Position numbers and translations under genes: made by a program. Positions 8,008-35,307 of a DNA stretch of 35,874 bases are shown here, piece after piece. The stretch lies in the NCBI GenBank assembly GCA_000934665.2, contig JYFJ02003974.1, positions 1-35,874 of the forward strand. Reading direction: 5' to 3'. Positions within the stretch are counted from its first letter, which is position 1; every line of letters starts with the position of its first letter. The notes below the pieces were generated by a model. It saw only the letters and a program-made list of their open reading frames with translations. It made no database searches and was not told the origin of the DNA. The DNA is from Catajapyx aquilonaris (lineage: Eukaryota).

Positions 8008-8286
8008 CTACCCACCTGAGCCTGGAGTGAGTGCATCAACTGGCAGAGATCCCCTCCTCCTTTCCAGAAGTGGGTGTTGTGCAGGTGGACCTGGACCTCT
8101 TCCCCTTCCTCCACCTCCAAGCAGCTCCAGGCTGCCCCAAGCTAACCCACGGTCTGGCCCAAGGGCAGCAGCAGCCTCTGCAGGATACACTCCATTTCCA
8201 GCCTGACCCAGGGCTGCCCATGAGAACAACTCAGGTCCCCCTGAGCGCCTGCGCTTCAGGTTTGCAGATCGTTTGCCCAGAGCCAG
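8008..8286 (-). CDS. PDE7: PDE7 C-terminal tail exon (LALGKRSANLKRRRSGG...RRRGSLPVDALTPGSGG*)
   Basis: Acceptor ccctccaaaag|CTG, phase 0, matches the AAG|gtgagt donor at 9015; carries the same RRGSLP motif as the upstream exon; ends at TAG 8010-8008 or splices at 8016. Confidence 0.7.
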   Translation of the reverse strand: MALGKRSANLKRRRSGGPELFSWAALGQAGNGVYPAEAAAALGPDRGLAWGSLELLGGGGRGRGPGPPAQHPLLERRRGSLPVDALTPGSGG

Positions 8287-9015
8287 CTTTTGGAGGGATC
8301 ATAATAACATTCATGTCCTTTGGTCACACAAATTCAATAGCACATGCTAAATTACTTATGATGTAAAAGGCAAATTAATTTTTTTTATTTTCTCCTTCCC
8401 TTCAAAAAAAATCACCAGTGTTCTGAATAAAACAATGCAAATACTCTCAAAATGCTTACAATATTTTATGTGAATACCGATACGAGGCTTCAGAAATAAA
8501 TCCACAGCACCAGTAAATATATTTTATTTTCCTCTGCAATGACTTACTTGCCAGAACATTATGGTATGAACTTTACACTCCGTCAGTACAGGCCTCTATC
8601 ATGAAGTCCTCTACAACAAAGACAGTTACAGGACATGTTTGACAAACTAATCTTTCCTGCTGGTGTAGGGATATCAGCCATTTTTTTTCTGTATCAAGGC
8701 TGCCCATAATTTAGTTTGAAGGGCTTATGAGAGGTAATGGGGTAAAAATTACCCACTGGCAAGATGTATATTGCTGTACTGTACATTTTCAAAATGTACC
8801 CAACGAAACACAGTGCACTGATATGTTATGTTTCATGTAATGGAACACTGAAAAATGGGGGATAATCCAATTTACTAAAAACCTACATAAGCCCTTGCAA
8901 ATCTGCACATATCCCACTTCTTCCTCACAGCATCCAAGGTTGTGTGGTTGAAGCTGATTCATTGCATCTTACCACACACTGTGACAGTGACTTCCAATTT
9001 AGACCACACACTCAC

Positions 9016-9956
9016 CTTGTTGGCTGCCTCATGGTCTGAAGGTACTGATCCCCTCCTGGCAGTGAGTCTCCAGAGAGCAGTAGCATGTAACTGTGCTCCA
9101 CCCTCGCCTCCCACATCTGTAGCAGCCACCACCAGCATGGCTGCTGCGTCTGCTGGGAGCGATCCCCTCCTGACCAGTGCTGGTCCACGAGGATTATCCC
9201 TGGCCTTCAGAACCTGCCTGGAACCCTCCATTGGAGCTGATGCTCTTCTTGCCCACCTTCCATCTAAGCCCCACCCAAACTCCGACTCCCACCACACCCC
9301 TTCCTTCACTAGCCCAACAGGTGCAGACCCTCGCCTGCTGGTCAGTCTCTCCTTCACTCCTGCCACTTGAGGAGCATGCCTAGTCATGGCCACACCTCTT
9401 GATTCAATGTCTGCACCATCTTCAGTCAAGCTCCTCCAGGCTCTCTGCCTCCACCCATTGGCACCATTGCCTCTTCTAGAGGCAGGTGGAATCACATTCT
9501 CCTTTTCAACCTCACGGTGTCTCCGTCTAGTAGCTGGTAGTTCAACTGGCGTTGCCACTTGTGGTGGTGTACAACAGCCATTCTTGCATTTTGGGACATC
9601 ACCATGAGAAGAAGATGAAGAGCTTTCTGATCCCTCAGCCCCTCCTGAAGCCCCACCTTCTTTCTCATCAGAGGTTTCAGATGCAGCTGAAGCAGAAGCT
9701 GATAGGGATGCCTCCTCACAGCAGGAGCTGAGTTCCAGAGCAGCACTTAGGTATCGGGCCCTAAATGCAGCCGCACTTGACTGTGGTGGTGGGAAGGTCT
9801 GCTGGCGTGACAGCCGAGGCAAGGTTGGGCGGTTAAGCAGGGTGGCCAAGCGCGTTGTGTCATCCCGAGAAGATATTGATGCAATGGATGGCTCAGGTAA
9901 CAGGGCATCTGCATCTCGAGGGGTGGTTGGTGGAAGGTTTGCAGTCACAGACACAC
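9016..9956 (-). CDS. PDE7: PDE7 C-terminal low-complexity exon
   Basis: 941-nt open exon; acceptor cctgattcag|GT (phase 1), donor AACAAG|gtgagt (phase 0); Ser/Ala/Arg-rich with RRGSAP, RRASAP, RRGSLP, RRGSVP. Confidence 0.8.
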
Positions 9957-10150
9957 CTGAATCAGGAATAATTTGTGTTAAAATACAATTTTAATTTTTA
10001 ATATCACATCAATATAGCAATATGTTGGAGAGTTTCCTCAGATGGAAGTTCTACATGGAATCAGATGCTAAGAAATAAATTAAAATTGCTTCCATTTAAT
10101 TAGTGTCCTACGAAGGCTCAGATGTACAACATGGAGAATAATGTGCTCAC

Positions 10151-10708
10151 CTGACATTATGGACAGTGAAGAGAGATTAAGGCCATCATTCCTGTGCCAT
10201 ATGGTAGCAGAAGGAAACCTCCTCGGAGGTGCTGAGGGAAGGCTTTCCCTCCTGATTGTGGTCCTTGCTGCAGGTGGCTTGGGGATGCTGAGGGGAACTG
10301 AATGCCTTCTGAGCTGCCCTGCACCTGTTCCCACTCCTTCTGCATCATCATCATCCCCAGGCAGTCCTTCCCTCACACGCAGAAGACTTGAAGAAGAAGC
10401 CCTCCTGGATGATGAGCTCATCCCTTCCTCTGACGAAGACGACCTGCGAGTGCTGGAAATCTCCCCTGCCAGTAGAGCTGACCCTATTGCCCCTCCCACT
10501 AATTCCTCTTCATCTGAATCTATTCTGGGGTCAATTGGCTCTGTATCAGATATCTCAGTGCGGGTCTCTTCTGCAAGTTCCTGCTGTAACAGCGCTTCCC
10601 AGCGATCATGGTTGGTCTTAAGGTTGTTGAGCATGCGAGTGGAGAGGTTTGTCTTCAAAAATCGGTGCCACTCCTCAAACAAGGGGGACACCACAAATTT
10701 GAAAAAGC
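10151..10708 (-). CDS. PDE7: PDE7 end of catalytic domain and start of C-terminal tail
   Basis: (G)FFKFVVSPLFEEWHRFLKTNLSTRMLNNLKTNHDRW is the final class I PDEase helical segment; acceptor tttgcag|, donor TCAG|gtgagc. Confidence 0.92.
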
Positions 10709-10923
10709 CTGCAAAGCATGAGAAATTTTAATAATTCCCAGTGATTATTTTAGTTATACCCCATTACTGTTATGATTATCAAGTTCTCTCTCAGGTGGTG
10801 TCTTTCAGTACGTATTAAGAGAGAGACAATAAAAATATGTTTATTTCTATTCTATGCATTTAACTTAAGGTTAATAATGCAGAAAAGCTCCACAACTTTT
10901 GCCAAGAAAATGAGAAGACTGAC

Positions 10924-11338
10924 CTGACTGAATCTTGGGCACAGACGTCGACTGCCTGTCGCACAAGGAAGTGACTGGGAGATGAAGCCTTCTCTCGTAA
11001 TCCCCTTGTCTGAAAAACTCTTCACAAACTTTGTAGCTCCACCTCCTGCTCACCTCCCAGGGCCTGCAGGGGTTGCAAATATCTGCACATTTCAGAGCTA
11101 TTTGCAGGATGAAATGCCTATGTTCCGGCAGACGCATGTCCAGACCATCCTCATCCAGGTAGCGCCGAAAACCACACAAGAACTCCTGCTGCCGTGTTAT
11201 GTCTGTGGCCAAGATCAATGACTTGAGCTGTTCCTCCAGTTGGGATACCACAGATGGGCCCAGGGCTGCCCCAACTCCACTCTCACTAACACATCCCATT
11301 GCCGACCTCCAGTGATGGTTCTCTAGCACTGATGTGTT
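10924..11338 (-). CDS. PDE7: PDE7 catalytic exon
   Basis: [53 protein letters not shown], invariant Gln in KIQSG. The ENHHW, ADICNP and SxxWS signatures fit PDE7 rather than PDE4. Canonical splice sites. Confidence 0.95.
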
Positions 11339-11436
11339 CTGCAAGGAGTTAAGCCACGTGAGTTAAAACCAGTTGGGCAAGATTACTTCAATTTATTAAT
11401 GACGTGCAGCGGACCTGGTGATAACACGTTCCTTCA

Positions 11437-11549
11437 TTTATTGGCTAGCATAGTGGTAAGGGACAGTGTAATGATGTCACAGTGTATGCCTGTATAAGGG
11501 ATCCTTACACTGGCCTTGCAGGCTTGAAATCTAGCATGTAGCCAATAAA
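11437..11549. repeat. Imperfect ~113-bp foldback in a PDE7 intron
   Basis: Outer arms TTTATTGGCTA (11437-11447) / TAGCCAATAAA (11539-11549); inner arms CAGTGTAA (11464-11471) / TTACACTG (11505-11512). Confidence 0.6.
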
Positions 11550-11931
11550 CTAATACACCTAATGACAATGCCAATGGAACAGTACATTTTCAACAAATAT
11601 TACTTCACAGATAACATGTAGATGTCCCAAAAAAATTTATGAAGAGGTCACTATTTTTTGTAAAATATTGACTTCAACGTAAGTTGGTCAAGATGACGTC
11701 ATTTTACCTTATGTAAACATATACAGTATTTACCTTGAAAACATACTGTATGCATAATCTTACATAATTTTGCAAATACCAGTCCAAATCCAATAGATTT
11801 CTTTCAGAATACACAGTAAATGTTATTTCTGTACTGATGGAAAGTCATTTTACTGTACACCACATCAAAAATTGCCATAGCAGTAGTTCTCAAAGTCAAA
11901 ATGAGCTTACCAAATGCAAATGTAAACTTAC

Positions 11932-12063
11932 TTTGTACAGGGCTGCTAAATGGTTAGAAGTAGCCACAAGAAACGGTTGGTTGACCCCAGGATGATCCAA
12001 GTCATGAGTCACAGCGGCAAGGAGTGCTGCCATTGCCTCCATTGGTGTCATATGTTCACGTAT
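11932..12063 (-). CDS. PDE7: PDE7 catalytic exon (metal-binding HD motif)
   Basis: [57 protein letters not shown] matches PDE7 as recalled. Acceptor cttaag|ATA, donor AAA|gtaagt. Confidence 0.95.
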
Positions 12064-12135
12064 CTTAAGAGAGTGAAAAGTTGTTTGCATTCTCAATTAT
12101 GATGGATGTAACGACCTAGTGGAGTCTGATGCTAC

Positions 12136-12332
12136 CTTGTCCTCCTGAAGGAAGCAGTGCATGGCCTGAGTGACATCAGTGGCATGGATGGCATTGTGGT
12201 AAGGATTGCTACCGTGATAGCCCTCCTCTATGAGGCAGAAGAGTTTCCACACTTTGACAGCATCCAATCCAAAGTGATCCAGGAAGCCATACCAGTGGAA
12301 AAGGTAAGTACAGAGGACAGGTAGAGAACGGC
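12136..12332 (-). CDS. PDE7: PDE7 catalytic exon (YHN motif)
   Basis: Frame not in the ORF track: (G)[65 protein letters not shown]; acceptor cttacag|, donor AAG|gtagca. Confidence 0.95.
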
Positions 12333-12592
12333 CTGTAAGGAATAAACATTAGTTTCAGCAGGTGGCACTAAATTAACATTATTTGTATGCAAGTGTTGTA
12401 ACTGGCACTGAAAAAGCCCTGAAGCATCTCTAGGCTGATAATGAATTATTAAGTTACACAAAGATTGCTTTATTCTACAGATTCTAAATGCATAGTCACT
12501 TTGTGTCTTCCTCAATTTCAAAGAGAGCTTAAGCCAGTTTAAAAAATTTCAGTTACTTTTATAGCAGGATATTCCAAAGTGTTTGAACTTAC

Positions 12593-12656
12593 CGCCTGTG
12601 GCATTGTCGAGAGCAAATGCATTAAAGTGCCAGTGAGCACTCCTTTCCAGCAATAC
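12593..12656 (-). CDS. PDE7: PDE7 exon (start of catalytic domain)
   Basis: [21 protein letters not shown](G), matching the WxFxxFxxD segment; acceptor tatcag|GTA, donor GGCG|gtaagt. Confidence 0.9.
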
Positions 12657-12717
12657 CTGATATAAAATGCAAATTTTCACTTTCTAGATCACTTTTCTTC
12701 ATAATAAGTGTACCAAC

Positions 12718-12932
12718 CTTGGCCTGCCCATGGTATACATCATCCAACAAGGCCCTATCCTGAGTGAGGGCTCGAGTTGTGAGCCTCCTCCGCCTCCTCT
12801 TATGCATGGTCAGAAATCTGCCTGTATGGAGTGGACGGTGCGTACGCACATCCAGGGTTTCCATCAACACCCAGTCTGAGTCCATGCCCATGGCCTCGCG
12901 ATTTTCTCCTGCTTCTTCTCCACTCACATCGC
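12718..12932 (-). CDS. PDE7: PDE7 N-terminal exon
   Basis: (G)DVSGEE...[12 protein letters not shown]...[11 protein letters not shown] resembles PDE7A GDV...ILDDDYNGQAK as recalled; acceptor ttttcccag|, donor AAG|gttggt. Confidence 0.88.
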
Positions 12933-13909
12933 CTGGGAAAATAAAGCACCTTGCATCACCACTTGTGCCTGCCCGTTGCTCGAGAAGCACGACTTAACTA
13001 CAAAAAGTACGTAGTAAAGCCCTAATGCTCTCTATTTCACACATTTCTTACATAAAATACAATGCATCCTTAGAGATGGGAAAAGTTTCAAGGTTTGTGA
13101 TGTAATTAGCCTTTTTTATTCTATCCCTTTGAAAATCCCTTTATAGAGCACTTTAAACCACAGTCACGCATCTCACATTTAATCGTTTATAACATTCTCC
13201 CCAATTAGTTTTGTGCTAACTACATCAAGCATTCTACTCATAAAATTATAATGAACTGTTCATGTTACATTGGAAGAACATTGGTGGAACTGGAACGTTG
13301 GTTTCTACATTGTCATAGAAAGTGCCAAACCATCCTTATTCTCATTACACACTCCTAATGTATTAGCACAATTATTTACTTTATTTTCACCACTATGTTT
13401 TTCCCTTAGCACCACAAAAAGAAAGCACCGTCATGTTTACATCCAGCACATGCAAAAGATTCAAGGCACTGGACTTTGCACAATGCTGCCGTTTCACCAC
13501 TTCAACCGCATTATGCTTTCCCATGACTACAAACATCCCCCTCCGAATCTGCACGATTCCGTGAAACTTCTTATGACACAAGTGGACAACGACCTCACAA
13601 CATGACCCTAGCAGGTGCACCAGCATTGGAAGTAACCTGCCGCCTCTTCACATGCAATCCAATTTTTCTAGGGCAAGCCCTTATTCCCAAGAAGCTAAAT
13701 GATAGCGAAAGATGCCGCTCCACTGAAAATTCTGCGACATGCAAATTTCACTGTATTACTTGACAGACTCTGATTGTATGTTGCGTCGAGGACTTATACT
13801 CCATCGTTCCCTTTCATCCTTATTAGATTACTCCCTGCAACTGGACAGACCGTCCTCCCCAGTACCTGATATGTCCACACCAATGCAACTCTCAAACCAT
13901 TCCAATTAC

Positions 13910-13994
13910 CAGTCATGGTGACGGTGAGCACATGGCTGGAGATCCCAGCCACCAGACTCCTCTCCAGCGACGCCCTCGGGCCGGCACACACGCT
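13910..13994 (-). CDS. PDE7: PDE7 common exon 2
   Basis: Strong acceptor ttttctgtacttccag|; SVCAGPRASLERSLVAGISSHVLTVTMT(G); phase-1 donor ACTG|gtaatt gives MTG|DV, positionally like PDE7A IRMLG|DV. Confidence 0.75.
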
Positions 13995-16900
13995 CTGGAA
14001 GTACAGAAAAGGGAACCCCGGTCAGTGGCCATCTCACAACAGAATCCCCAGGCAGGTCTCTCTCTCCTTCTTTTTTACTTCTTCCCCACCTCGCCTCCAG
14101 CTTCAGCTTGCACACTGAGCTTACATATATTTTTTGCGCTCGTTCCTTTCACCCCCGAGCCACATTCCCGCGCGGTGTTGCCTAGTCTTTATTTATTTCC
14201 GTTCGAAGGGTGCTATCGTCTTATCTGGAATATTTGCAGTAGTCATGTGGTGTGCGAGATGCTGACAGGCAGGGTAAATCCCAAGAGAAAAATTTGCGCA
14301 AAAGTGCGTGTCTGGTGTCTGCAACAATTTGCAAGCTTTGACATTGATGATTCGAAACCCTCTCGTGTGTGACTAATGGGGTCATCTCCCCTTCGTCACG
14401 CTACAGTTGTTGTTGTTGTTTACCATGCACTGTACAGTACGTCTTGGCGCCAGTACTCGCAATTTCTAAATTGCAAAATCGCACTTTACACGGCAGCAAA
14501 AAATACGATACGTAATACTTACTGCGCTGTTGAATATTACGTGTCCGTTTGTCAACATGACACTCAATAGTTCGCAAAAAGAAAAAAAAAAGAGCAACAC
14601 GCAGAATCGCACTAAATACATACTGTTAGTGCTTCCAGACACCTCCACAAAAGCCTTGGAAAAGCACCAGGCGCCCTGTGGTTATTGGAACAGATCTATC
14701 TGCTGGACTGATCGCCGCTCAACTAACTCTATTGAGGCTGCCGGGGTCAAAGAGGAAGGCCCCGTGAATGAATTAAAGGTGTCGGAAGATTAGCCAGACA
14801 GCAAAAAAGGCAGACATCAATCAGATTGCAAGGGGAAGTAACATTGTACCAAGCGCAACATGGAAATGGGACTATTATGTATTCCACTTTTGCCCCCAAA
14901 TGATAAGCATCGCGATTGTACAACAATAATATTGTAGCCTACTAGTGGCAATTGTGTCGTTGAATGCGACCATTCACGCCTGTTCTTCAGTGAAGGTGAC
15001 AGGGGAAATCCACAGTTCAACTGGAGGTAGTTTACCCCAACAATTTAAATATTCACGAGTATTATTCGCTTTAAAATTATTTCCATTATTTATATCTAAT
15101 TTATCATTTAAATCGAAGCAATATTAATTGCTCTGTGACTTTTTGCTACTCTTGAACCTGGGTCTTGACCAGTGACTTTTTTTTTGATCAGCACGATTGT
15201 CACTATGCGACGTGTGTTGGTGTGAGGCCTTCGGACAGTTGATTGCCGATTTTTTAGGAGGGCTCTTATTCATTGCTCCCATTTGTATTCATCAGGGTAA
15301 TCTCCTGGGTGATCAAATCCCCACTCTATGATAAGTAGTGAACGGCTCTGGGCGTGCTCCCGGAAATGGCCAATTGGCAAACCTAGCCGTACAGATAGAG
15401 CCGGTTTGAATGTCGGGTGGTGGAGGAGGAGGAGACAGTGGGGGGTGGGGGTATGATGTTCGCTGTCCGCCATCTACAGGTGGCCGTTCGAAAATGAATA
15501 GGAATGAAGGTCGTGGAAGAGAAGGCCACCGTATGCATTCGAATGGATTAGAAGGGGCTAGCCTGTCGAAGGCCTCGGGAAAAAAACAGTGAAATGTCTC
15601 CCAAAATGTAAATGGGGGGAAATCACAAAACCAAATGACAGGTGCACGATTTTCTTCCCATCCTCACCTGTTTCCAGAAAAGAAACGTCCAATATCGACA
15701 TACATTATAGCCCGAACTGTACAACTATATAAACGGCGGCAATGAAGATGTGCCTTGTGGTCAGCAACGTGCTTTGAAAATAAGTATTCAGTTAGCAGCC
15801 GGGTGACTAACCCAACCTTGAAGAATGTCCATTAACCCTCAGGTGTGACTAAATACGACCCTGAATCACTTGGCCCCAATTATCACCCCAAAATGCATAC
15901 CACCACAACTGGCATCATCGCAATGACATAACTTCTCTCAGATTTTTTTTTTCTTCGCATCGCTTTCACTTCTCTACTGAATACACTCCTAACGAATTGG
16001 TGCCTTCAAGAAGGAAGAAGCACAAAAAAAACCTTGTTTATCCACGGTGTCAACGTTCGCCAAAATTTTTTTTGATGCTAATCAAAAACTGATTTGGCAA
16101 GCAGCGACCCGGACAAGCAGCCCGATAAATCACCCAATGTAAATGACCCCCATCGTCTGCCTGCATAAAACAACACAAGCGGAAGACCACCTCTCATGAT
16201 TCATCCAGGTCAATCCCACATACTCACATAGTGATTATGCCTACACACGCGCACGTACATATGCAGCACACACGTTGCACGTCCAACTCCCGCCTTCTCG
16301 CAAACCACTATGCCGCGTGTCGGCCTTCACTTACCCAACCACATACTCCTCCATCCCCCACTATACCCCCTGTATACTCCAAACAGGGCACATCCCCCTC
16401 AACATGCACAGACTTTCCTAATGCCACATTATTGTTGAGCACCACAAATTGTGAATGACTGGGTGTGAAAATTGTGGCATTGTTAGATACTTGTAGATTG
16501 ATATTGCTGGTTCGCTGTATATTGTATATACAGAAGCGGAAGGTGATGCTCAAATGGGAAAACAATGTTGGCCCGAGAGACTCCGACGACCTTTCTGTGA
16601 CAGGTGAATACCGTGCCAATAGATCTTGGCACGGTCCCGGGACGTTGGTTGGTCAAAATGCCACCGCATTTGCATGATATATGCAATATGTTCCGTGTGG
16701 ACTGAACCGGGTAAATCCGAATTTCTGCATATGTTGAGTCAGACATACACATGTGCATGCTATGTCAAGAGTATCTCAATGATTCGTCAATCCCGGCGCA
16801 TATAATTTATGACAGGCTATTCTATACATCGCAGGAATATTATCAGTTGTATTATGGTAATCATCAGTTTTGCAATGGCTATATTCTGACATAAATCAAT

Positions 16901-17471: not shown

Positions 17472-17605
17472 TCTAAAAGCGTGTCCCCAAAACAATCGTA
17501 ATTTTGCTCCCAAATTACACGAATCAAACCGCCCCGGTATCACGATAAATGAGATTCATTGCCCAATATTTCGCGAAAATCACTTCAATCATCATGGACG
17601 CACAG

Positions 17606-17850
17606 TAACGTCACAAAAAAATAAATCTCTGTCGATTAGATCAGATACCCACACAGGTGATATAATTGGCGTCCCTCGACGTCACGGCGTCCGAAAAGTA
17701 GAGGCCCGCCCTTTATTGACCTGACCTCGACGATTCCCTAGGTTGCTAGCGTCGCGTGACGTCACAGAGGTTGAGGGTCCGCCTTGACGTCACGAGAGAA
17801 AGAGCAGGCGAGAAGCGTCAAGGTGCATAACTGGCCTCTAAGTGACGTCG
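17606..17850. promoter_or_regulatory. CRE cluster (internal promoter or enhancer of PDE7)
   Basis: TGACGTCA at 17757-17764 and 17785-17792; near-CREs TAACGTCA 17606-17613, CGACGTCA 17677-17684, TGACGTCG 17843-17850; CpG-rich. Confidence 0.7.
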
Positions 17851-20800: not shown

Positions 20801-23800
20801 CACCACCCGATGAGCAATCATTTTCAGGCGACGTTGCCAGAATGTGTGCACAACTGTGTGTTTCAGTGCTCCCTTCCCTCCCCCCTCTCCCCTCCCCTCC
20901 CTTCCCTGCACTTCATCCAAACCCAGAGCCTGCAATATTGATTTCGCCCGGGCAGCCCAAGAGAAGGACTGGGAAAACGGGAAGAAGAGCCTTTGATTTG
21001 CAGTCTGGGATGGAGGAGGTAAAAAGGAAGATTGGGGGTGGGGGAGGGAGGGAGGATGATAAAAAAATATGGGGAAGGGGTGTAATCAGGAGAGTCACGA
21101 TATTTGATCATTTTCGACACCCTCGTCACATTATCTTCAAATCAGGAGAGGCGGCCTATAAAGCTCAGGGGGTGACAGAATCGATATTTTTCTCATTAAA
21201 AATTTGCTTTTTTATTACTGAAGTCGATACTGGCACGCAACATGTAATAAGCGCTATGGGATAATTTTCTTAAAATGCTAAAAAGGTGTCAAATTGTAAT
21301 ACCCATGTGGGTTAGGCCTCCCGAAGAGCTATCATGATACAGCACTTACAAGAAAGTGAAATTAACAGTATAATATACGCAGCTTATTCGCTGTGATGAT
21401 ATATCTTTCGTTAGCATAATTTTAGACGTGTACTTTCCTTATTCTCGTCCTGCACTGCATATAACATGCAGATTTTCACAACTCAGCATATGAACAGAAT
21501 TTATGATGTTACGAAATGTGCTAATACAGAATAGATAAGGAAATCAGGAGCTGACACGTAAATTAGAGATGCAATAACCATAAAGTAAGGTTTTGGCAAT
21601 GGATTGCATTTAAATCAAAGGATTTGGGTTAGAATCACGGAAGTGGAATATTGCCCTTTATGAATAACATCACTTGACATAATAGCAAATTCCTGGTCCC
21701 CAATTCAACCTTTCTCTTGCGACCTCTGAATTACATACCGTTATTATACCAAGCCTTTCTCCTCAATTGGGTCTTTAATTGGGTACATATATTATCTCCC
21801 ATGCATCGCTTCCTCATGATATTTATTGGTACTGAACATGTGCTACAGATATCATAACTGGAGCAATCCGCTTTTACTTCCGCCACATCCCACATCTTTG
21901 AAATCATGCTTTCGACATGATTGCAACTAGTGCGCTGTTATTTCCTCAATAATTCAATTTCAATGGCGGATTTATAGGCAGGAAACGACACATTATTCTT
22001 CCGTTCGTAGACCTGGCTGCGCCCCAGAGGGAGACGTTTATTTCGGAAAGACAAGTCACCCAAGGACCAGAAATAGATCGAACTAACTCCCTCACACTTT
22101 TCTTTAAATCGACCTTTTCATTTGATTTTCTTTCAGAATTACAGGATTACATATACACCAACGCATATTTATTCTAACTCATTCATTTTATTCATAATGC
22201 AACTAGGATGTGCAGGACGCGAACAGAAATATTCATCTACGCACAATGTTACGTATGCATTAACTTGCAGCTACATATTCGTGGGAAAAAACTGTGCTCA
22301 AAATCAACTATACTGCCAGCAAATTGAATTTTATATGAACAGCACGCTGAAAAATCACAACCTTTCCATGAAAATGTGCGCTATAAGTTCGCGTTACGTA
22401 ATTTGTACATAAGTAAAAAATTTCTCAAAATTTTAATCAAGCAATATTTCGGTCCATCACAAAAGGCCATAAACAGCAGGCTTGGCATCACCTCAAATGT
22501 CACCATCGATCCTGACTTTTGGCACACTTGAGATTCAGGACCTTTTCTTTAATAACACTACTACGGGCCAGGACCCGTACCTTCTGCCAATTTCCCTGGG
22601 TTCTGGGCTTAGCTGCAACCTGGTCTATAGGAGGCGGAGGGCGATGACACCAGGGGAAAAGGTACGGTACACCACCTCCCCCTACCCCCTACCCACAGGC
22701 TTCCCGTGTGCCCAATCAATAAGGGAAGGTAGGAAAAGAGGTGACGAGAAGGGGAGGCAGGTAGGGGAACAATTCTGCATTTTTTAAAATCACCTTATTG
22801 CACCAGCACGTGCCAAAGATTGCGTATCCAACATCACCCGCTATGAAAAATAATGCGCAAATGAATGAGTGATCCGCGCTTAAGCCATACAACACTTGCA
22901 CTTGGCACAAATCACGCATTGGACTAATTGACCTCTGCTATCTGCACGTCCTCCCAAAGATAAACAAATAAAGGCCACGGGATTACGCAGGGGCACGAGC
23001 GAATCACGAGGCCCAAACCACAACAATAACCGTGGTGACGCTGGTCAAATGTGGCTAAATTCGGCAACACAGCCTGAAATGGCGCGCAAAATTTAAATCG
23101 TCCGATCATACAACCTTGGCTTAATACAAAATGTCAAAATAATTAAATATTTTCTACCGATATTACCAGCTCCGGAGCCAGAGACGTTTGGCTGCCCTTC
23201 TCCTCCGTGTGCAGGTCCTGTGTTCGATCCCCGCGGATGCAAAACAACTGCGCCAGAAAGTCCGCGATGGCGTTGCAGGCGCTCTGCATGGCACCCAGCA
23301 CGAGTGGTCACTGATAAGGGCTCTGCTGACACCGCACCAACCGGCAACACCGCTCGAGACCTCATCACTGTCACCTGTCCATTGTTGCCCCGCAATAAGT
23401 GACGGACACACCAGGGTCAACCGGCGTGCTTTGAACAACGCCAATCTTATTCCACCGCCAGGCGGATCATCAGGGTGCTAAAATGCTAGGCAACCCTGCT
23501 GACCCCAAAGTTCGTGACCCTGACCCCAATTTTTTTCCGCTTAAAGTAACTCTGATTTTCCCGCCTTTTTTTTTACTAGAGGGCGTCACCGCTTCCACGG
23601 GGCCAACCAACCGGCGACTAAACTCGGTCTATCTCAAGTTCGACGTTGCCGCCTCAGTCCGCGCACCTAAAAAAAACACACAATATCTACGCATGCGTAC
23701 TAATTACTAACCCCTCCCATTCCCAACTACACGGCGAAAATTATAGCAAAAGTTCGGCCAACTTGGCCAAAAAAAGCAAATTCGCCAAATTTGTCAACAC

Positions 23801-26035: not shown

Positions 26036-26235
26036 ATCTGCGTAACCGCCATCCTAGGCGGGCTACATTACATTTTACGCGCATTAAACCCACCTGAATA
26101 CAAAAAACCGAATCCAGGTCACTTTCAACAATAGAACCTTGCTCCCTTAATTATCCGCAAAACTGCAAAGTGCTAACTATATACAAGCGACAAAAAAAAA
26201 GAAAAAAAAAGTTTGAGCACGAGTCCTCCATATGA

Positions 26236-26384
26236 TGACGTCAAAGCCTTACCCCCAACGCGATCGATCCTCATTGGCTGGCCCTGAACTCATCCCCTCT
26301 ACCCCATCCAATCTCCTTCATCCGTCTCCCCACCCAGCCCCACCCCCTTTTATGCCTTGACGTCACTTCCCGGAAATCGGAAGT
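26236..26384. promoter_or_regulatory. CRE/STAT/ETS/CCAAT composite element
   Basis: TGACGTCA at 26236-26243 and 26358-26365; TTCCCGGAA (STAT GAS consensus) 26367-26375; CGGAAGT (ETS) 26378-26384; ATTGG and CCAAT between the CREs. Confidence 0.65.
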
Positions 26385-26861: not shown

Positions 26862-27442
26862 GTCTCCTCCTTGGTGTGTCCGGCCTCAGGGGGGGTCAAA
26901 GGTCACCTCCGTCCTCTCCTCCTCTTCCGTCTGGCCATGCTCATCCTCTCACCAATATGTAAATGGGGGGGGGGGGTCGTCGTACCGACGCCGCACAGAC
27001 GCCGTCCCCCCTGGGTTCTTCCGACGTCGACCGCCGGTTCCCAACTAGTAGGGCAGGCAACGGACTGGAGGCCAAATCCCCATACCTCCCTCACCACCAC
27101 CACCACCCTCCAACCCACCGACGCTCCCGACGCCCATCGATCCTTCCCAGCACGCCGACTCTCCCGAAAAGGAAGGAAGGCCAAACCCCTAGCTAACCCG
27201 CAATTTCGGCGGTTCCCACTATTTTGGCCCCCCATTTAAAAATTTCCGGGAGAGGGACCCCCTCTTTTCCCCACCAGAAACAGACGCATAGAGTGAACCG
27301 ATGAAGTAAATTGGCAGCTGACCTCATTCTTCGAAAATGACGCTAATGCGTTGTTTCACTAATTTGGCTAGATGTTATTGCTGGTTCAATTACATTAGAA
27401 GCACGTACGGGGCCGCTCACCTCCGGTCATTAAATCGCGGAT

Positions 27443-27638
27443 TGACGTCACCAGAGTCCAGCATGATATTTTTCCATCTTTATGGAGAGAGTCTAGTATA
27501 TACATCCCACGGACCAATATTTCCTTTAAATAATCGATTCTCCCTTACTTAAATGGACTTACACAGCCTTGACCTAATTCCGCCATGAATTATTCAGCAT
27601 TTTGTCAAAAGGGGATACCCTCATTCCGAATGACGTCA
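27443..27638. promoter_or_regulatory. CRE pair upstream of PDE7 exon 1
   Basis: TGACGTCA at 27443-27450 and 27631-27638, between the MTFR 3' end and the PDE7 CpG island. Confidence 0.6.
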
Positions 27639-28009
27639 CTTGATAAAAATCTTCCGGGCTTAATGCAAAAATTCCGACAGGGTCCTCCAAAAAAAAATAA
27701 AAAATGTGTGCTTGAATTAAAATGGGACGAACATTATTGCAATATTTGGTATAGGTGCAGCATGTACGATTGGCAAGTTTGCAAACTTCCTATACCAAAG
27801 TTCAATGCCAGTGTTGACAAACTAACTCCCCACCACACATTTGCCTCCCTCCCACCCTTCTCAAACTGCACCCTCAGGAGCCTACAGCGTTGCCCAATAG
27901 CATGAATACACAAGTGCTCAAATGAGGACAGTCCCAAAGGTTTGGAAGGAAAAAATCATACAGACTGGACACAACATGTTGCGGAAATGCGGATCAGTCC
28001 AAATAATGG

Positions 28010-28015
28010 TTTAAT
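28010..28015 (-). terminator. Candidate MTFR polyadenylation signal ATTAAA
   Basis: TTTAAT on plus strand, about 245 nt downstream of the predicted MTFR stop. Confidence 0.35.
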
Positions 28016-28259
28016 CCTTCCTCTGTGAATACATGCATCAAGAGCTAATGATGCGTACATAAAATAAAAATATAATGCTCGTTTTATAAAAAATTCATTT
28101 CACACGGCATGTACCACCAGGGTAGGCCAAAAGTCAATTGGCAAGAATGCATGAATTCAGGTCAAACCAGTGGTTTCTGATCTGCATGAGTCACAATCTG
28201 CACATGACATGATTGTCAGTATTGTCACACAAAAAAAAGTTTTTATGACTGAGGCAGCA

Positions 28260-28322
28260 TTAAATTCTCCAGGGTGCTGAAAACTTTCTTGCTGTATTTT
28301 TAACCTGGAGGGGTGACTTGCT
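28260..28322 (-). CDS. MTFR1: MTFR probable last coding exon (SKSPLQVKNTARKFSAPWRI*)
   Basis: Acceptor tttctttgccattgcag|AGC, phase 0; TAA at 28262-28260. No recognisable homology, supported by splice signals only. Confidence 0.55.
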   Translation of the reverse strand, partial: SKSPLQVKNTARKFSAPWRI

Positions 28323-28564
28323 CTGCAATGGCAAAGAAATAAAGCAGTTGAGTCACTGCTTCACAGTACAGTAATACCTTTTCTCACTTTTTAAAACATT
28401 AAAACATGACAGAGTAAATGACCATTCAGGTATTTTCAGTCACAAATCATATCACTTGCAGGTTATAAAACACTGTACCCCATGATATGTTAAAAAATAA
28501 TTGTTGGTTAATTGCTCCCAACAATTAAAACCAAGAACATGCATTTTGGGTTTAACATACTCAC

Positions 28565-28820
28565 CCTCCTCTCACTAGTAGCCTTCTTAGAAGATGAAGG
28601 GTTAACAACAGAAGCAAAATTGTTGTCGTCAAAAGGATCGCATGGGTCCAAATTCTCCTTTCCCATGCCAAAGCCACCATTGTAGCCTGGGAAGTCATTT
28701 TCACTCTCATCCTCCCCGTGTATTCCAGCAAACCTTCGCTTCAAGGCTTCAGCAATCACAGATGCAGGATCAGAGTCTGATAGAAGAGGAGCTTGGCGCA
28801 CTGGATTTCCTCCTGGAGAT
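28565..28820 (-). CDS. MTFR1: Mitochondrial fission regulator (MTFR1/MTFR2 family), coding exon 3
   Basis: (R)SPGGNPVRQ...DPASVIAEALKRRF matches the family motifs RSPGG and DPAxxIAEALKKKF; acceptor aatgtcag|A, donor AGG|gtgagt. Confidence 0.9.
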
Positions 28821-29039
28821 CTGACATTAAAATGCAAGAGTGATAAATGTATATTCTTCTGCTAACTTGAAACATGGAGAAAATCTAACTTTGTCAAAAC
28901 TTGATGCATATGCAAGAGGCTTGTATACAATGAAAGCAGTATATTTCATAACAGCAACTATAATGACGACGACGATGATAATATGCATCATCATGATCAT
29001 CCAGGGTAGTGCATTCACCGCTGTGGGGTATACTGTATG

Positions 29040-29280
29040 AACCTTTTTCCATAGTGCCCAAGTCCATGAGGGAGGGAGGGAGGGTGGTGGAAGAGGAAGT
29101 GTAGCTCCAAGGGCAATAACGACATTGGCCTGTTAGTGACTTCCTCCAGGTAGTTAGCCTAGCAGAAATCTCATCCAAGATGAATCTCCACACATGATTA
29201 GAAAAGGAAGCCCAGGTGAGAAATCAAACTGTGACCTTTCTATTGGTGGGTGCAAGCATTACAGCTGCACCACTCTGCCT
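29040..29280 (-). mobile_element. Possible degraded tRNA-derived SINE
   Basis: Minus-strand head aggcagagTGGTGCAGCTG...cacaGTTTGATTTC resembles degenerate Pol III A and B boxes at tRNA-like spacing; boundaries approximate. Confidence 0.3.
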
Positions 29281-29286
29281 CCTCAA

Positions 29287-29374
29287 ACAATTGAAGGGCT
29301 CCATGGAAGAAGCGGGTAAATAGATGGGAATTCCCATCTAGTTACCCCCTTCTTCCATGGAGCCCTTCAATTGT
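29287..29374. repeat. 88-bp spacerless palindrome in an MTFR intron
   Basis: Two 44-bp arms centred on GAA|TTC (29330/29331) with only 2 mismatched pairs. Confidence 0.95.
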
Positions 29375-30095
29375 AGTGTGTGCAAGAAATGAACAGGTGG
29401 CATGGTATAGTTCGGTTCAAACTTTGTGGAAGTTGCCTTATCTTAATCATACCCCTACCTCAACTAACATGAGATACTTTGAGACCATCAAGCTGCCAAA
29501 ACCAGGCAGATTGCCAAAATGATGCAGGGAAATGCATCACATTGTAATTTGCTGTATTGTTGAGAGTTCATCATCACAATAGTATCATCCTACAAAAAGT
29601 TACAACAGCATCATATGTGTTGCAACTCGCAAGGTTAAGTGCTGCAACGTGGCTTCATGCAGTTAACGGAGGTAAACAAGGCACACCCAACCTCATTGCA
29701 CATTGCAGTCACACCTTTCTTCGGAAGATGCCCAACTACGTAAATTTAGTTTGGTATGGAATGGAGTGGAATTAACGAAAAGGCCAATGTGGTCATTCAT
29801 AAGCGAGTTAAAAATTGGCATACTGCACTGATAAAAGCTTGCTCTACAATATTAATCTATAAATGGAATCTTTCAATTGAACTGTAGACTCATTTTATCA
29901 CTGAATACATAAAATGGCACAGCAATGGGACCGAGAGTTAAAAAAAAATTAGTTAGCTTCTAACACATTCCAAAACACTATTGACAACAGAAATGCAAAT
30001 ATGCAATGAACATGTTTGCAATTGACAAACATCATGCCACTTGTTTTGCAATTTGGCCACAACGACCAATTATGCAGGAATTCAGAGAAACTTAC

Positions 30096-30724
30096 CTTGC
30101 GACAGGTCTGAGCTTCACAGCCCCAAGCCCCTTAAGGACTTCCATCATGGATGGAGGTGGTGGGTTCTTGAGCTCCAATGCAGGCGATGGGGGTGGGGGT
30201 GATGGAGGAAAGTTGCTAAATTGCGAAAATGTCTTGGGAGGTAAGGGTGGGGGTGGCGGACAGGTCCAAGTTGGTGATGAAGGAGGCGTGAAGGTTGGGG
30301 AGACGAGAAGGTAGTCTGGAGGAGGTGGAAGTTCGTCCTCCTCGATCTTGGCATGAACAAAAGCAGCTATCTGTGCCTTGAGCTGAGCCAGTTCCTCCTG
30401 AAGGGCTGCAACCTTGTCTCCTTGACTAGATATAGCAGACTCGCCACCAAATGTTAGGCTATCCATATGTGGTTCCTCTTCTTCCACGTGGACCCATCTC
30501 TCATCATTCGCTTCTCCCTCCTCCTCTTCATAATAACCAATAGCACCCTTTATGCTCTGGGATAAAGCAGTTGAGTTGAGGGTGGGAGCAAAGGAATCAA
30601 AGCAACTGTCAGTAAGCTTGAGGAATATCTTTCGTTGGGGTTGCAGGTAGAGTGTGCTGCCAATGAGACGGGGCAGACTGCGGTAACGACCATGGCTGCG
30701 TTTCAGGTCAAGCAGCTTATGAAG
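30096..30724 (-). CDS. MTFR1: MTFR-family coding exon 2
   Basis: HGRYRSLPRLIGSTL (family G..RS..R.IG..L motif), coiled coil DKVAALQEELAQLKAQIAAFV, polyproline tracts, MMEVLKGLGAVKLRPVAR; acceptor tttcag|CTT, donor AG|gtaagt (phase 2). Confidence 0.93.
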
Positions 30725-31134
30725 CTGAAATGAACAAATTGCAACCTGAATTATCCCTTAACGTAAAAAATATTAATGCCCTCCTCAAGTCAAATTCAGT
30801 TACTCATTTATCTGATGTTTTTTTGTTTTTTTTGTAACGATATGCCTGCCTGATAATTTTGTAAAATCCATTTCAACAGACATTTTCCACAAGATTATTT
30901 ACTCACAACTGTCTTTTCAGAAACACTTTAAAAAATAATTACATATACTGTAACTTAGTTGCTGTTATCATTTTCCATGGTTCTTTGAGTGCTCAACTTG
31001 AATAGGCTCTTTAGAATGACTATGTAATCACCAATTTTTAGGCAATGACAGCACAACCTGCCCCTGAGAGGATGTTCTGATATCATCAAATAGCATGAAA
31101 AACCAATGTGAGTAATGTACCATACATGTTATCT

Positions 31135-31385
31135 CAAGCATTCCCCCTGTATTCGCTGGGAATAGGTTCCAAACCCACCCATGGATAATACTGAACCCCA
31201 TATAATCCAGGCATTAATACATTAGGTTCCAGACCACTACTGTAAAGCAAATCACAAGCTTCTTTCCCCTTACTAGTGCATTTTGAAGCCTTAAAACATG
31301 TGTACACTATCACATATTAGTGTGCAATAGTGCTAAGCCAAAAAAAGATGTAAAACTAAAAAACTGCTAAAATAATAATGCTCAG
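31135..31385 (+). mobile_element. Degraded Tigger/pogo-like DNA transposon 5' fragments
   Basis: TTCCCCCTGTATTCGCTGGGAATAGGTTCCAA resembles MER2/Tigger termini; GGTTCCAGACCACTAC...AGTGCAT...TACACTAT...GTGTGCAATAG is collinear with the Tigger1 5' end as recalled. Confidence 0.5.
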
Positions 31386-31638
31386 ATAATGAGTGCAGGC
31401 ACTGCAAGCGCAAGGCAATAGTCAAAAAGAATTAAAATGAATACATTGGAAGTGCTGCATTAGGTAGGATATTAATATCGTTACACATTAATCCAAGTAA
31501 ATGTTTGCCGAACACATTGTCCGTTACAGGAAGCCATGTTCTGTCCTGATGCCCATGATAAACGCCATTCCTAGACTCTGGACTTTACCACCCACTGCAG
31601 CTTTTTAGCCAAGGGCAATGGCGTTGTTGTAATCTAAC

Positions 31639-31764
31639 CTCATTGGTGACAATACGCAGTGTGGCATCCCACCCGAACCTGGCGAGGAAGAACCAGGCCA
31701 CTTCCTGCAAGTCAATGACAAACTCCTGGGCCAGCCCCCTCACGAAATCCACCACCTGATCCAT
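31639..31764 (-). CDS. MTFR1: MTFR-family first coding exon (MDQVVDFVRGLAQEFVIDLQEVAWFFLARFGWDATLRIVTNE)
   Basis: Acceptor tttcag|ATG; phase-0 donor GAG|gttaga in frame with the next exon; an upstream non-coding exon ends at 31871 (ACG|gtaggt). Confidence 0.75.
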
Positions 31765-31979
31765 CTGAAATGAGAAAACGGTGCCAATTAGTCCACTGGA
31801 ATCATAACCCGCTCGACCACCGCGCGCGTTAATCTTTTGCCCAATTATTTTAAATGCCCAGCCTACCTACCGTCCTTCTGTGCGTGCAGGCTCCTGGCCG
31901 ATGATGTGAAGAAGCAGCCTGGGGGGCCCTCAGGAATCGGAAATAACTGGACCACGTCTGGTCAGGCCAAAATCATGCA

Positions 31980-32400
31980 AAATCACTGCGATCTCCACTT
32001 TCTCCAGGCGTGACCTTTTATACTTTTTCAAATTCCAGGGTCACAAGATGCGCAACTCACACGCAAGGACGTAGATTACGTAGTTACGCTTCTAAATAGT
32101 ATTATTTAGCACTTAAATATTATCTAATTACTTTTTTGATTTCTGAAAATGTTAATTAATAAACTATTAATGGAAAGTGTGCCAACAGTTACTGCGTATT
32201 CAGTATTTATCTTATTGTTTAACTTCCCGTTACAATAAGAATTATGCAATAATTTGTATACTTATTTTATTTACACAATGAATGATTATTATGCAGAACT
32301 AATTTCGTTTTCAAATTGGCAACGCGTGAATCGATCTCCAACGGTTTTCCGCAGTTCCGCCATATTTGAAAAGGTGTCAGTTGGAAAGAGGCGAACGTCG
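31980..32400. promoter_or_regulatory. Putative bidirectional promoter of MTFR and ARMC1
   Basis: Divergent genes with start codons 742 bp apart; AT-rich core about 32090-32310 flanked by CpG-rich segments; plus-strand CCGCCATATT (YY1/Pho-like) 32357-32366 and TCAGTT (Inr) 32377-32382; minus-strand TATAAAAG 32022-32015. Confidence 0.65.
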
Positions 32401-32505
32401 GGAGAACGGAGAGTCGCCCGAGGTTTATCAGAAACCGGCGGGTTTGGCTCGCCTAGCCATATTCATACCCGGTAGTCGAAGAGGAGGAGGAGGAGAGAAA
32501 GAGGC

Positions 32506-32589
32506 ATGTCTAACGAGCACGCCAGGGGACTGCTGGAGTCCTTCGGGGCCATGGCGGCCGATCCGCAGAAGAGGAAAGTCCTGGTCAAG
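32506..32589 (+). CDS. ARMC1: Armadillo repeat-containing protein 1, exon 1
   Basis: MSNEHARGLLESFGAMAADPQKRKVLVK matches ARMC1 LAADPLNRRAIVQ as recalled; donor AAG|gtaagg. Confidence 0.85.
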
Positions 32590-32618
32590 GTAAGGAAAAG
32601 AACGCCGTGCTCGTCCCT

Positions 32619-32642
32619 AGAGAGAGAGAGAGAGAGAGAGAG
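32619..32642. repeat. (AG)12 microsatellite in ARMC1 intron 1
   Basis: Directly visible. Confidence 0.95.
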
Positions 32643-32784
32643 TGTGTCACTGCTGCGGGGATGTCACATTCCTGAAGGGGAGTTCAGACAGTACTATAAC
32701 AACAACATGACTTATCAATACCAGGCTTTCATTTCAATAGTTGTCACATGCATTGTACATTCACCAGGTTTTTATTTGTTGCAG

Positions 32785-32951
32785 GAGAATAATTTCCTGA
32801 GCACGTTGGTGTACCTGATGGACGACAAGGATGAAGTGGTTGTATCTGGGGTGCTTGACATTCTTCACCAGATATCGGACACGGAGGCCATACGTCGCAA
32901 GCTGGCCTTGTCTCAGGAAGTCACCATGGGCCTCAAGTGCATGGCTGATGA
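32785..32951 (+). CDS. ARMC1: ARMC1 exon 2 (armadillo-like repeat)
   Basis: ENNFLSTLVYLMDDKDEVVVSGVLDILHQIS...RRKLALSQEVTMGLK aligns with ARMC1 [24 protein letters not shown] as recalled; acceptor ttgttgcag|, donor GA|gtaagc (phase 2). Confidence 0.87.
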
Positions 32952-33228
32952 GTAAGCGTCTTCCTTCATTCGGCAGATAAATATTGCTTCTGCAGCTTTC
33001 ACTCCATCATTGGTTCTGTAAGGGGAAAGCAGCTCTGGAGGTGGCATTGTTTTCCCAACAGGGTCCTGAATGCCCACTTTTCTGTGTGTGTGTGTGTGTA
33101 TGTGTCATTCTAGTTTCATGACCTATGGCCCCCTTTTGCGTACTTGCCTTAGCACTTGATTCTGCTAAACGTTCTTTCTAACCATGTGATGGCGAAGGAT
33201 ATGTACAACCAACAGTAGTTTGTCAATA

Positions 33229-33562
33229 CAGGAAGTCCCCGGTCTATGAACGGAGTTACGTTCCTGAAAATGTCCATAAGTCGGATTAGTACATAACTCA
33301 GATCCCTGAGGAACACCGTATATACAGCGTAAAGATGCTGCTCCAACGAACTGCTTACGTCATGTGTGATTGTTTGCATGTCGGAAGAACGTAGTTTCCC
33401 AATTGTTTATTAATTATACTGTGTTTACGTTGAACTTTGTGTTGGTCAACGTGAGCATAGCAGAAGCGATTGAAAGTGGAGGGATAATTATAAATTATAT
33501 CCTTCTGGGGAGCCTTGGAGCCCATTCGTAAGTGTGGATCGCCGTAAACCAGGGACTTCCTG
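33229..33562. mobile_element. Tigger/pogo-like MITE (334 bp)
   Basis: TIRs CAGGAAGTCCCCGGTCTATG and (reverse complement) CAGGAAGTCCCTGGTTTACG, flanked by TA at 33227-33228 and 33563-33564. Confidence 0.85.
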
Positions 33563-34913
33563 TACTTGCTTTGCACGCAACAAGATTTAAACTTGATGCG
33601 GAAACAGTTTTTCAGCAAGAATTGTGGTGGTATCATACATGCTGACAGAAAAGAGAAGGATTTACTCTTCAACGCCTCATATGATTGCCACAACAGAAAG
33701 AACAAAATGGTGCCATGTTGTCAAAGGCAAAACCCATCCAAATGTGGCCCACAACACAGCTGCCTTATTGGATACTTGCACAGCCTTTCCTCGTATCCAG
33801 ATTCCTGCAGGAGTGAATTTTCCTAGAATCTGGATTCTTCTTGGTATTTGCATTGTCAGCAATGCATACACAGTGGGCTAGATAAAAATGTGCAACAACA
33901 TCTTTGCCTGGAACAATACAGTATAACTGGATGAGTTCAGAAATGAAGGGCATAGTGGTTGAGTAATTGTGCCACTTGCCATCACAGTGGGAGGTCTAGG
34001 AATCAAATCATGACCCAACCACATTCTCATGGTTGAGTCAAGTAATCATGCTGATTTCATTCCTTCTCTCCTAAGGGACTAGAGAAAAGATCGGATGTAG
34101 CCTACTGAGATATTGCAAAATGAACTGAAAAAAGGGACAATTGTGATGACCATTCTGACCATGTTTAAGCATCATTTTAGACTTAAACTGTCATCACACA
34201 TTGTCTTTGCATTGATTTAATTCCAAGCACTGAGGGAACACATTGAACATATTGGGTGGATTGCGATTGGTGGATTGGGTGGATTGCGAGTTTAAACTGT
34301 GCCTCAATTACATCGCAGTTTAAACATGTCTTTGAAATCCACCCCATTGAGATTGTCTATTTATAAACCACGGAAACTCTCTTCTTCTCATAAGGAAAAA
34401 TAAGGCAGATTATACGCCTACACATCAGGCACATTTGCAGTTTTCCCGATAAAATTAAGCAGCCTTGAGTGTTTCCTGTCCATAAGCTCATTTCCATAAC
34501 CTGGTATTTTAAGTTCCTTCTGTAGCACAAAAATGCAGAAGTTACCATATTACCATGCACTCTGCTGCATGCTGGTAAATTCAGGGTGGCCAATTTTTAT
34601 AAAATGCACATCTGGTGACTATACAGGCACTCCAGTTTAAGTATAAACTTTTTTAAAAAAAATTTAGAGAATAAAGGAGGGAATAGATACTCATCTCCTT
34701 CCCATCGTCTGTGTCAACCAGTTACGAATTCCCATGTACGATCTTGTAAATCACTAGCCAATTCATTACTTCAATTTTGATAATTTTGAAGGGAAGGAGA
34801 AAATTCACAAAAATTTCCCATTTTATATTGGCTGGCCCTCTGCTTAGGAATTAGACTAATGCACAAGTCAACTACTCCATGAGACAATCCACAAATCGAT
34901 ACTTTCTTTCCAG

Positions 34914-35307
34914 CAATAAAGTGCGCAACCCTGCCTTGGCAAACCGTGCCACACTCCTACACCAGCGCCTGAGCATTGCAACCATGCTGAGAGAGCGTCG
35001 CAACCAGGCTCATCCTCCTCCTCCAGACGGCAAGGGGTCCAAGGTTCCACATACACCTGGCAAGTTTGCATCCATTCCGATCAGGCTGGAACTCAAAGGG
35101 GCAGTGACTGGCAGAGCGAGGAAGGCCCTGGAGGCAGGCCTTGTGGACGTGAGGGGGGTGGTTTCCTTCCTGGTTGATCCAGCCTCATCTCGGGTCACTG
35201 TTCGAGTCAAGCCTGGGATAGCCAACACAGAGGAACTGTTCAAGGCTGTGGCCAAAGCCGGCTGGGGTCTAGAAAATGTCCGGATGTTTGGGCCCAGAGG
35301 AAATGAG
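34914..35307 (+). CDS. ARMC1: ARMC1 exon 3 (HMA-like domain); gene continues beyond window
   Basis: IRLELKG...RARKALEAGLVDVRGVVSFLVDPASSRVTVRVK...EELFKAV matches ARMC1 LCEEALLKIKGVISF...RCVVRI as recalled; acceptor ttctttccag|C (phase 2), donor GAG|gtaagt. Confidence 0.88.

Follow-up and report, generated by a model that had tools for sequence, protein, structure and literature searches.

The closest described counterpart of the locus treated here is block 7418 ("Planulozoa novel") of the Syntenic Density Database (Robert et al. 2022, PMC8851819, supplementary file 4), in which the genes for ARMC1 and MTFR are neighbours. We compare this block, and related mammalian and snail arrangements, with a stretch of 35,874 nucleotides from Catajapyx aquilonaris (the window), which is the entire contig C2125 of a 285.6-Mb assembly. 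The window carries PDE7, MTFR and the first three exons of ARMC1, the latter gene being cut by the contig end; the finding extends from the PDE7 stop (8008) to the end of ARMC1 exon 3 (35307). We consider it reasonably probable that four genes, PDE7-MTFR-ARMC1-ARFGAP1, were inherited side by side around a durable ARMC1-MTFR core, and that the window holds the left part of this neighbourhood.

In the listed part of the source, block 7418 takes up 30 rows and covers 8 of 49 species (Aurelia, Nematostella, Exaiptasia, Acropora, Crassostrea, Euprymna, Lingula and Saccoglossus), of which four are cnidarian. ARMC1 and MTFR belong to it in all eight, ARFGAP1 in five, and the CSPP1 and TAF2 groups in two each; its rows hold no arthropod, no vertebrate and, in none of the eight species, a phosphodiesterase (PDE) (PMC8851819). 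A block requires at least three orthogroups with at most five intervening genes, and the block table gives no strands. "PDE7" is absent among the 30,623 rows listed of this file, which reach into the vertebrate section.

In the mammalian literature, as far as accessible, cattle chromosome 14 has the order ARMC1, MTFR1, one LOC gene and PDE7A; human PDE7A and MTFR1 are called adjacent, and PDE7B and MTFR2 lie within one 6q23 region. The original prediction, an earlier reading of this DNA from its letters alone, had named these vertebrate neighbours. As to human strands, we take PDE7A to converge on MTFR1 and ARMC1 and MTFR1 to be divergent, orientations not confirmed in the accessible papers; human ARFGAP1 presumably lies at 20q13.

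In the snail Biomphalaria glabrata, chromosome 5 carries PDE7 (+, 42.440-42.453 Mb) and MTFR (-, 42.491-42.498 Mb) (Table S9, PMC11699755), and the accessible part of that paper gives these genes only as the content of a quantitative trait locus. The two are convergent and separated by 38 kb, in which the only models are two single-exon tandem-repeat ones.

At the protein level, human ARMC1 forms a complex with MIRO, MTFR and TMEM11 (McKenna et al. 2025, PMC11980836). It binds MTFR on mitochondria via D27, D37 and D49 and stabilises the MTFRs, which are degraded by the proteasome without ARMC1; one MTFR assembles with one MIRO, and the HMA-like domain of human ARMC1 is devoid of cysteines. The words "adjacent" and "chromosome" and the stem "synten" do not occur in the accessible main text. 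Old gene pairs have been catalogued under the term conserved ancestral microsyntenic pairs (CAMPs), defined by at most four intervening genes in at least four major lineages; they include a co-regulated 5'-5' class, with HSPE1-HSPD1 and HADHA-HADHB as examples (Irimia et al. 2012, PMC3514665). In the accessible part of that study, 5'-5' pairs make up 75.8% of the human ancient pairs with fully conserved orientation. Further literature, accessible in part, is PMC7601430, PMC10486602, PMC12186830, PMC5115837, PMC2656531, PMC6808451 and PMC3397983.

Gene models and gene order at the arthropod locus

Gene models were checked against X1, a single run represented by contigs only, which was treated as RNA because its contigs show spliced joints. 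The main features are as follows.

8008-12932, minus strand: PDE7 coding exons (12932-12718, 12656-12593, 12332-12136, 12063-11932, 11338-10924, 10708-10151, 9956-9016 and 8286-8008), a single open frame with GT-AG ends
28096-32186, minus strand: MTFR exons (32186-31871, non-coding; 31764-31639, 30724-30096, 28820-28565 and 28322-28096), from a spliced X1 contig of 1553 letters
32506-35307, plus strand: ARMC1 exons 1-3 (32506-32589, 32785-32951 and 34914-35307), with the exon 1-2 joint present in X1 and an HMA-like fold
35575-35671, plus strand: overlap shared with the terminal stretch of contig C902 (C902:65291-65387), 100% identical over 97 bp, found only at these two places in the genome
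35672-35874, minus strand: terminal part of a mariner-like transposon, inserted at a TA within ARMC1 intron 3, with 14 genome matches and absent from C902

Gene models and X1 joints bear out the gene identities, the order PDE7 (-), MTFR (-), ARMC1 (+) and the head-to-head arrangement of ARMC1 and MTFR that had been read from the sequence. PDE7 had also been placed immediately downstream of MTFR. This holds in that no other gene was found between them (none of the 15 longer open reading frames (ORFs) scanned in the gap matches Pfam), but the MTFR transcript ends at 28096, 15.2 kb away from the PDE7 exon at 12932.

PDE7 matches PF00233 and has a class I PDE catalytic domain nearest to PDE7. Among the best 60 of 150 matched PDB sequences, human PDE7A gives 173 bits with the largest catalytic exon, and no other PDE exceeds 79; the nearest other PDE in the same genome shows 45% identity over 65 aa. 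Four intron positions are common to the window and the snail model, judged by exon size and phase (64/197/132/415 nt in the window and 64/96+101/132/92+82+66+97+81=418 in the snail, with identical phases).

MTFR codes for 357 aa with a poly-proline region and ends with a stop at 28260. All four joints, with CT..AC ends, are present in one spliced X1 contig, and the PF05308 match (9.7e-15) is the sole one in the genome (single copy). The window and the snail gene share a phase-2 intron located in the R codon ahead of SPGG and, by eye, the RSPGG and DPAS motifs.

ARMC1 is completed by exon 4 on C902 (64761-64540, minus strand), giving a whole protein of 288 aa; the X1 contig for this gene (951 letters) is consistent with a coding end at letter 900. 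The predicted fold of exon 3 is HMA-like, with HMA domains as top Foldseek matches (probability 1.00). Cysteines occur only at positions 80, 220 and 272 and thus not in exon 3, so that the domain is HMA-like without metal-binding cysteines. Exon 2, taken alone, is predicted to be all helix and has no Foldseek match. D19, E29 and D41 have the spacing of the MTFR-binding human residues D27, D37 and D49, and the linker DYLPEED (D-x3-E-E-D at 245-251), 43 residues from the C-terminus of a protein that ends in SFYW, has the spacing of human D239/E243/D244/E245; what follows it presumably corresponds to the short conserved C-terminal domain. The key acids of human ARMC1 and, as it appears, its domain layout are kept here, together with one ARMC1 and one MTFR; the complex itself was shown in mammalian cells only. 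A look for MTFR interface residues gave no match in the accessible supplements of PMC11980836.

The C902 join came from a pattern search with a presumed C-terminal motif of ARMC1 as bait, which was overall no better than its control (62 matches against 74). One of 20 fetched places, the C902 end, is right according to independent signs: the overlap, a frame in phase 0 and the motif. Both filled and empty alleles of the mariner-like insertion are in the assembly, which accounts for the contig break at ARMC1 intron 3; the transposon end presumably codes for a transposase-like C-terminus. ARMC1 intron 1 (32590-32784) has 195 nt and no in-frame stop, so that retention would add 65 residues; it is spliced in X1.

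ARFGAP1 is the next gene after ARMC1 on C902, tail to tail, with the stops 485 bp apart. It scores 162 bits as ARFGAP1 and 105 as ARFGAP3, and the best other ArfGAP in the genome shows 56% over 62 aa. The order is thus PDE7-MTFR-ARMC1-ARFGAP1, the ARFGAP1 link depending on the 97-bp contig join.

Domains, bit scores and exon structure uphold the orthology of PDE7, MTFR and ARMC1 as far as testable. Protein-collection searches returned no animal MTFR or ARMC1. In a search for homologues bearing on synteny, MTFR exon 2 gave no match among 592 candidates; ARMC1 exon 3 gave 12 matches, of which 8 are HMA-domain proteins by Pfam and none is ARMC1. A metagenome scan with PDE7 found 74 PDE-like loci (median 3.9 kb; not all PDE7) and no match to MTFR, ARMC1 or ARFGAP1, but it is uninformative on the neighbourhood because the loci are too short and not all are PDE7.

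Age of the neighbourhood and expectation by chance

The arthropod cuticle family PF00379 has 66 matches among 70 candidates in this genome and matches in none of the 14 control genomes; the genome is therefore that of an arthropod and a deuterostome is excluded.

As in block 7418, MTFR, ARMC1 and ARFGAP1 lie together, here with no intervening gene, so that the window and C902, via the 97-bp join, hold three orthogroups of the block with none between. Neither CSPP1 nor TAF2, the other members of the block, could be recognised in the ORFs of the window and C902; this locus adds PDE7. With the mammalian locus (human 8q13, cattle 14 and the PDE7B-MTFR2 paralogon at 6q23) the window shares the same three genes in the same order and, presumably, the divergent ARMC1 and MTFR. 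It differs in that ARFGAP1, no neighbour in the cattle list, adjoins ARMC1 in the arthropod, in that PDE7 is co-oriented with MTFR here and presumably convergent in human, and in a promoter gap of at most 320 bp here. With Biomphalaria it shares adjacent PDE7 and MTFR and common intron positions, the snail having no annotated ARMC1 or ARFGAP1 neighbour. The lineages in which ARMC1-MTFR is seen are cnidarians, molluscs, a brachiopod, a hemichordate (these under the five-gene rule), mammals and this arthropod.

Chance was modelled by shuffling gene order inside linkage groups of 250-500 genes. For the named trio, p is 3e-5 to 8e-6, but any two genomes should have some 0.1-0.2 trios and about 48 pairs in common by chance; the human match alone is therefore insufficient, and the extra lineages carry the case. 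The named four-gene run, every link of which is seen elsewhere, has a chance of about 1e-7 to 2e-8. That the MTFR-ARMC1 core is inherited is near certain.

For PDE7-MTFR, inheritance is probable. The contrary reading is that the two genes came together again by chance within one ancestral linkage group, and the different orientation here, the number of shared pairs expected and the absence of the link from block 7418 all speak for it. Yet the pair is found in three lineages and, presumably, in two vertebrate paralogons, and p is 2e-5 to 6e-5 for the named pair to recur in two further lineages; we regard a chance re-association as very improbable.

The original prediction had called the trio an ancient bilaterian linkage block. 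The linkage is indeed ancient, but because block 7418 includes four cnidarians the ARMC1-MTFR core is older than Bilateria (cnidarian-bilaterian) and already catalogued, with ARFGAP1 as its partner there. The proposed local inversion fares well: PDE7 and MTFR are convergent in the snail and, as we assume, in human, and the arthropod orientation is therefore the derived one. On this basis, MTFR-ARMC1(-ARFGAP1) would date from the cnidarian-bilaterian ancestor, as the published block and the membership observed here suggest. PDE7-MTFR would go back to the bilaterian ancestor or beyond, with the two genes probably in tail-to-tail orientation, and by parsimony over three lineages one local inversion in the arthropod line may have flipped PDE7. 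ARMC1-MTFR would be the durable core, with PDE7 and ARFGAP1 as passengers shed by different lineages.

Several points weigh against this reconstruction. No PDE is listed in any of the eight block species. The snail annotation has no ARMC1 model beside MTFR; the next model, 13 kb away, is pikachurin. The snail case is a selected positive because it was found by a co-mention text search, and 0.2-0.8 three-lineage pairs like PDE7-MTFR are expected genome-wide by chance. The block database gives no strands, and the orientation and spacing of ARMC1-MTFR are seen in this genome alone. The D19/E29/D41-type acid spacing arises in 13% of shuffles and is weak taken alone.

PDE7, its upstream region and flanking genes

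The following features upstream of the PDE7 model are candidates. X1 contigs do not allow start sites to be mapped, and missing cover on candidate 5' exons carries no weight.

13910-13994, minus strand: candidate upstream PDE7 coding exon, with fitting AG/GT ends and phases and no RNA cover
23167-23289, minus strand: candidate for the first coding exon in a long isoform of PDE7 (ATG, 41 codons and a phase-0 GT donor, reading in frame with the remaining exons), supported by neither homology nor RNA
26091-26365, no strand: promoter-like stretch with two cyclic AMP (cAMP) response element (CRE) sites (26236 and 26358), a possible PDE7 5' end, with an unspliced X1 contig of 247 letters (26091-26337, depth 3.8)

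The 15-kb gap is CpG-rich, with an observed/expected ratio (o/e) of 0.86 against 0.27-0.45 in the gene bodies. It looks regulatory, and about 1.8 kb separates the MTFR end from the candidate PDE7 promoter. This would suit a regulatory block in which enhancers of PDE7, a large signalling gene, in or beyond MTFR hold it beside a housekeeping pair, in any orientation. We think this unlikely, given that the MTFR introns are short (106-1275 bp), that the PDE7 link is unlisted in all eight block species and that, after the inversion, the regulatory DNA of PDE7 sits in its own 5' region. The PDE7-MTFR link breaks easily, and PDE7 is the most easily shed member.

The trio had been taken as a hint of functional constraint, a module joining cAMP/protein kinase A (PKA) signalling and mitochondrial dynamics and kept together for that reason. 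PDE7 is a cAMP PDE by family, it adjoins MTFR in mammals, the snail and this arthropod, and six full CRE sites lie in the gap, in three clusters (17757-17792, 26236-26365 and 27443-27638). All six are in the upstream region of PDE7 itself, and none is at the ARMC1/MTFR promoter. Against shuffles the excess is 7 sites to 0.39, but with 8 CRE in 68 kb of C902 as the genome's background it is modest (P about 0.01). It shrinks against this background, and the CRE excess was dropped as an argument on synteny. With no PDE in block 7418, an orientation that varies between lineages, snail MTFR without an annotated ARMC1 neighbour and no PDE partner named in the accessible passages of McKenna et al. 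2025, the three-gene constraint is not supported; that linkage outlives a single inversion is to be expected even in the absence of selection, and such a module is highly unlikely. The CRE clusters may reflect a cAMP feedback on PDE7 via alternative promoters.

Beside the catalytic part, PDE7 has a low-complexity tail of more than 500 aa with 10 RRx[ST] motifs (8008-10590, minus strand). A similar tail with matching motifs close to its end occurs in the PDE7 of another locus, L002, and resembles the last exon of the window's PDE7.

CpG depletion is confined to the gene bodies (o/e 0.27-0.45) and spares the promoters and the region upstream of PDE7 (0.85-1.08), and the distribution over the whole window is the pattern of gene-body methylation. 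Downstream of PDE7, positions 2359-4800 (minus strand) presumably hold the 5' part of another gene, which we take to be LPCAT-like; this exon has no Pfam or Atlas support. On C902 beyond ARFGAP1 (1-55400), a Nop-domain gene, presumably NOP58-like, is head to head with a gene for a ubiquitin-conjugating enzyme. The same region also holds a SOCS gene (SH2 and SOCS box), a low-complexity ORF of 1176 aa, a DFP-family gene, a sugar transporter gene and a CABIT-domain gene. In the snail, 120 kb separates a CABIT gene from PDE7, and MTFR has an EYA gene at a distance of 185 kb; the CABIT likeness with C902 is at the domain level.

The ARMC1-MTFR promoter and the persistence of the core

32187-32505, no strand: divergent promoter region of MTFR and ARMC1, at most 320 bp, from the MTFR contig end to the ARMC1 ATG and including the ARMC1 5' untranslated region

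The two starts are at most 320 bp apart because the MTFR contig reaches 32186 and the ARMC1 ATG is at 32506. From ATG to ATG the distance is 742 bp, within the 1 kb commonly set for bidirectional pairs. CpG o/e is 1.08 in this region, compared with 0.31 and 0.45 for the bodies of the two genes. Like the 5'-5' class of CAMPs, ARMC1 and MTFR are unrelated genes, 5'-5' and less than 1 kb apart, with products in one complex; that class is co-regulated, and for ARMC1-MTFR co-expression and a shared promoter would be putative.

Since human ARMC1 binds and stabilises the MTFRs, it is plausible that these obligate partners share a divergent promoter. Both genes also stand on a table of genes common to honey bee and vertebrates only, in the accessible part of that source, which hints at their joint loss elsewhere. 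The likeliest reason for the persistence of the core, to which we give about even odds, is dose coupling between the obligate partners through a shared promoter, which would also leave little room for a harmless break.

The shared-promoter view has its own difficulties. Mammalian ARMC1 and MTFR1 starts are, we assume, at least 10 kb apart, and there would therefore be no core bidirectional promoter there. Post-translational removal of MTFR when ARMC1 is short lessens the need for transcriptional coupling.

The serious rival is pure inertia: the genes would be inherited neighbours in a slowly rearranging lineage, with no link selected and with an ARMC1-MTFR interaction that is incidental or later than the linkage. 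Piecemeal loss fits it well (PDE7 unlisted in eight of eight block species, ARFGAP1 missing in three, ARMC1 unannotated beside snail MTFR), as does a block that holds only 8 of 49 genomes, and ARFGAP1, though unrelated, has been retained here no less faithfully than the partner that interacts. ARMC1-MTFR is, however, common to every block member (partly by construction) and to mammals, and close 5'-5' starts and an obligate physical dependence also speak against inertia; we judge it rather unlikely, though to be reckoned with.

A bolder form of the dosage explanation can be offered only tentatively. ARMC1-MTFR might be an operon-like pair, two obligate subunits of the MIRO adaptor complex that selection on matched dosage has kept head to head from the cnidarian-bilaterian ancestor onwards and that are gained and lost together. 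The full ancestral order PDE7-MTFR-ARMC1-ARFGAP1 would then be kept by this arthropod alone among the genomes seen, its halves surviving separately in vertebrates, the snail and cnidarians.

Hundreds of such neighbourhoods are known, and synteny as such is ordinary. The core MTFR-ARMC1-ARFGAP1 is already in print as block 7418, in the listed rows of PMC8851819; new here are an arthropod member and PDE7, and the ancestral four-gene order becomes reconstructable. ARMC1-MTFR1 or MTFR1-PDE7A may already be listed in Table S2 of Irimia et al. 2012, and the full Robert database may hold a vertebrate ARMC1-MTFR1-PDE7A block beyond the rows listed. In a literature search that left most subscription papers outside, no work was found on ARMC1 microsynteny or PDE7-MTFR synteny, nor any that links the old 5'-5' pair to the obligate complex. 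Among the papers listed for ARMC1 with MTFR none is on gene order by title, and among the matches listed for head-to-head genes neither gene is named; one synteny paper, in its accessible part, names ARMC1 in a teleost figure legend only.

With this locus one can cleanly test if ancient gene pairs are kept together by dosage coupling. If the operon-like pair is real, gene order would have foretold the biochemical result of 2025. The findings suggest that the ARMC1-MIRO-MTFR system is older than vertebrates.

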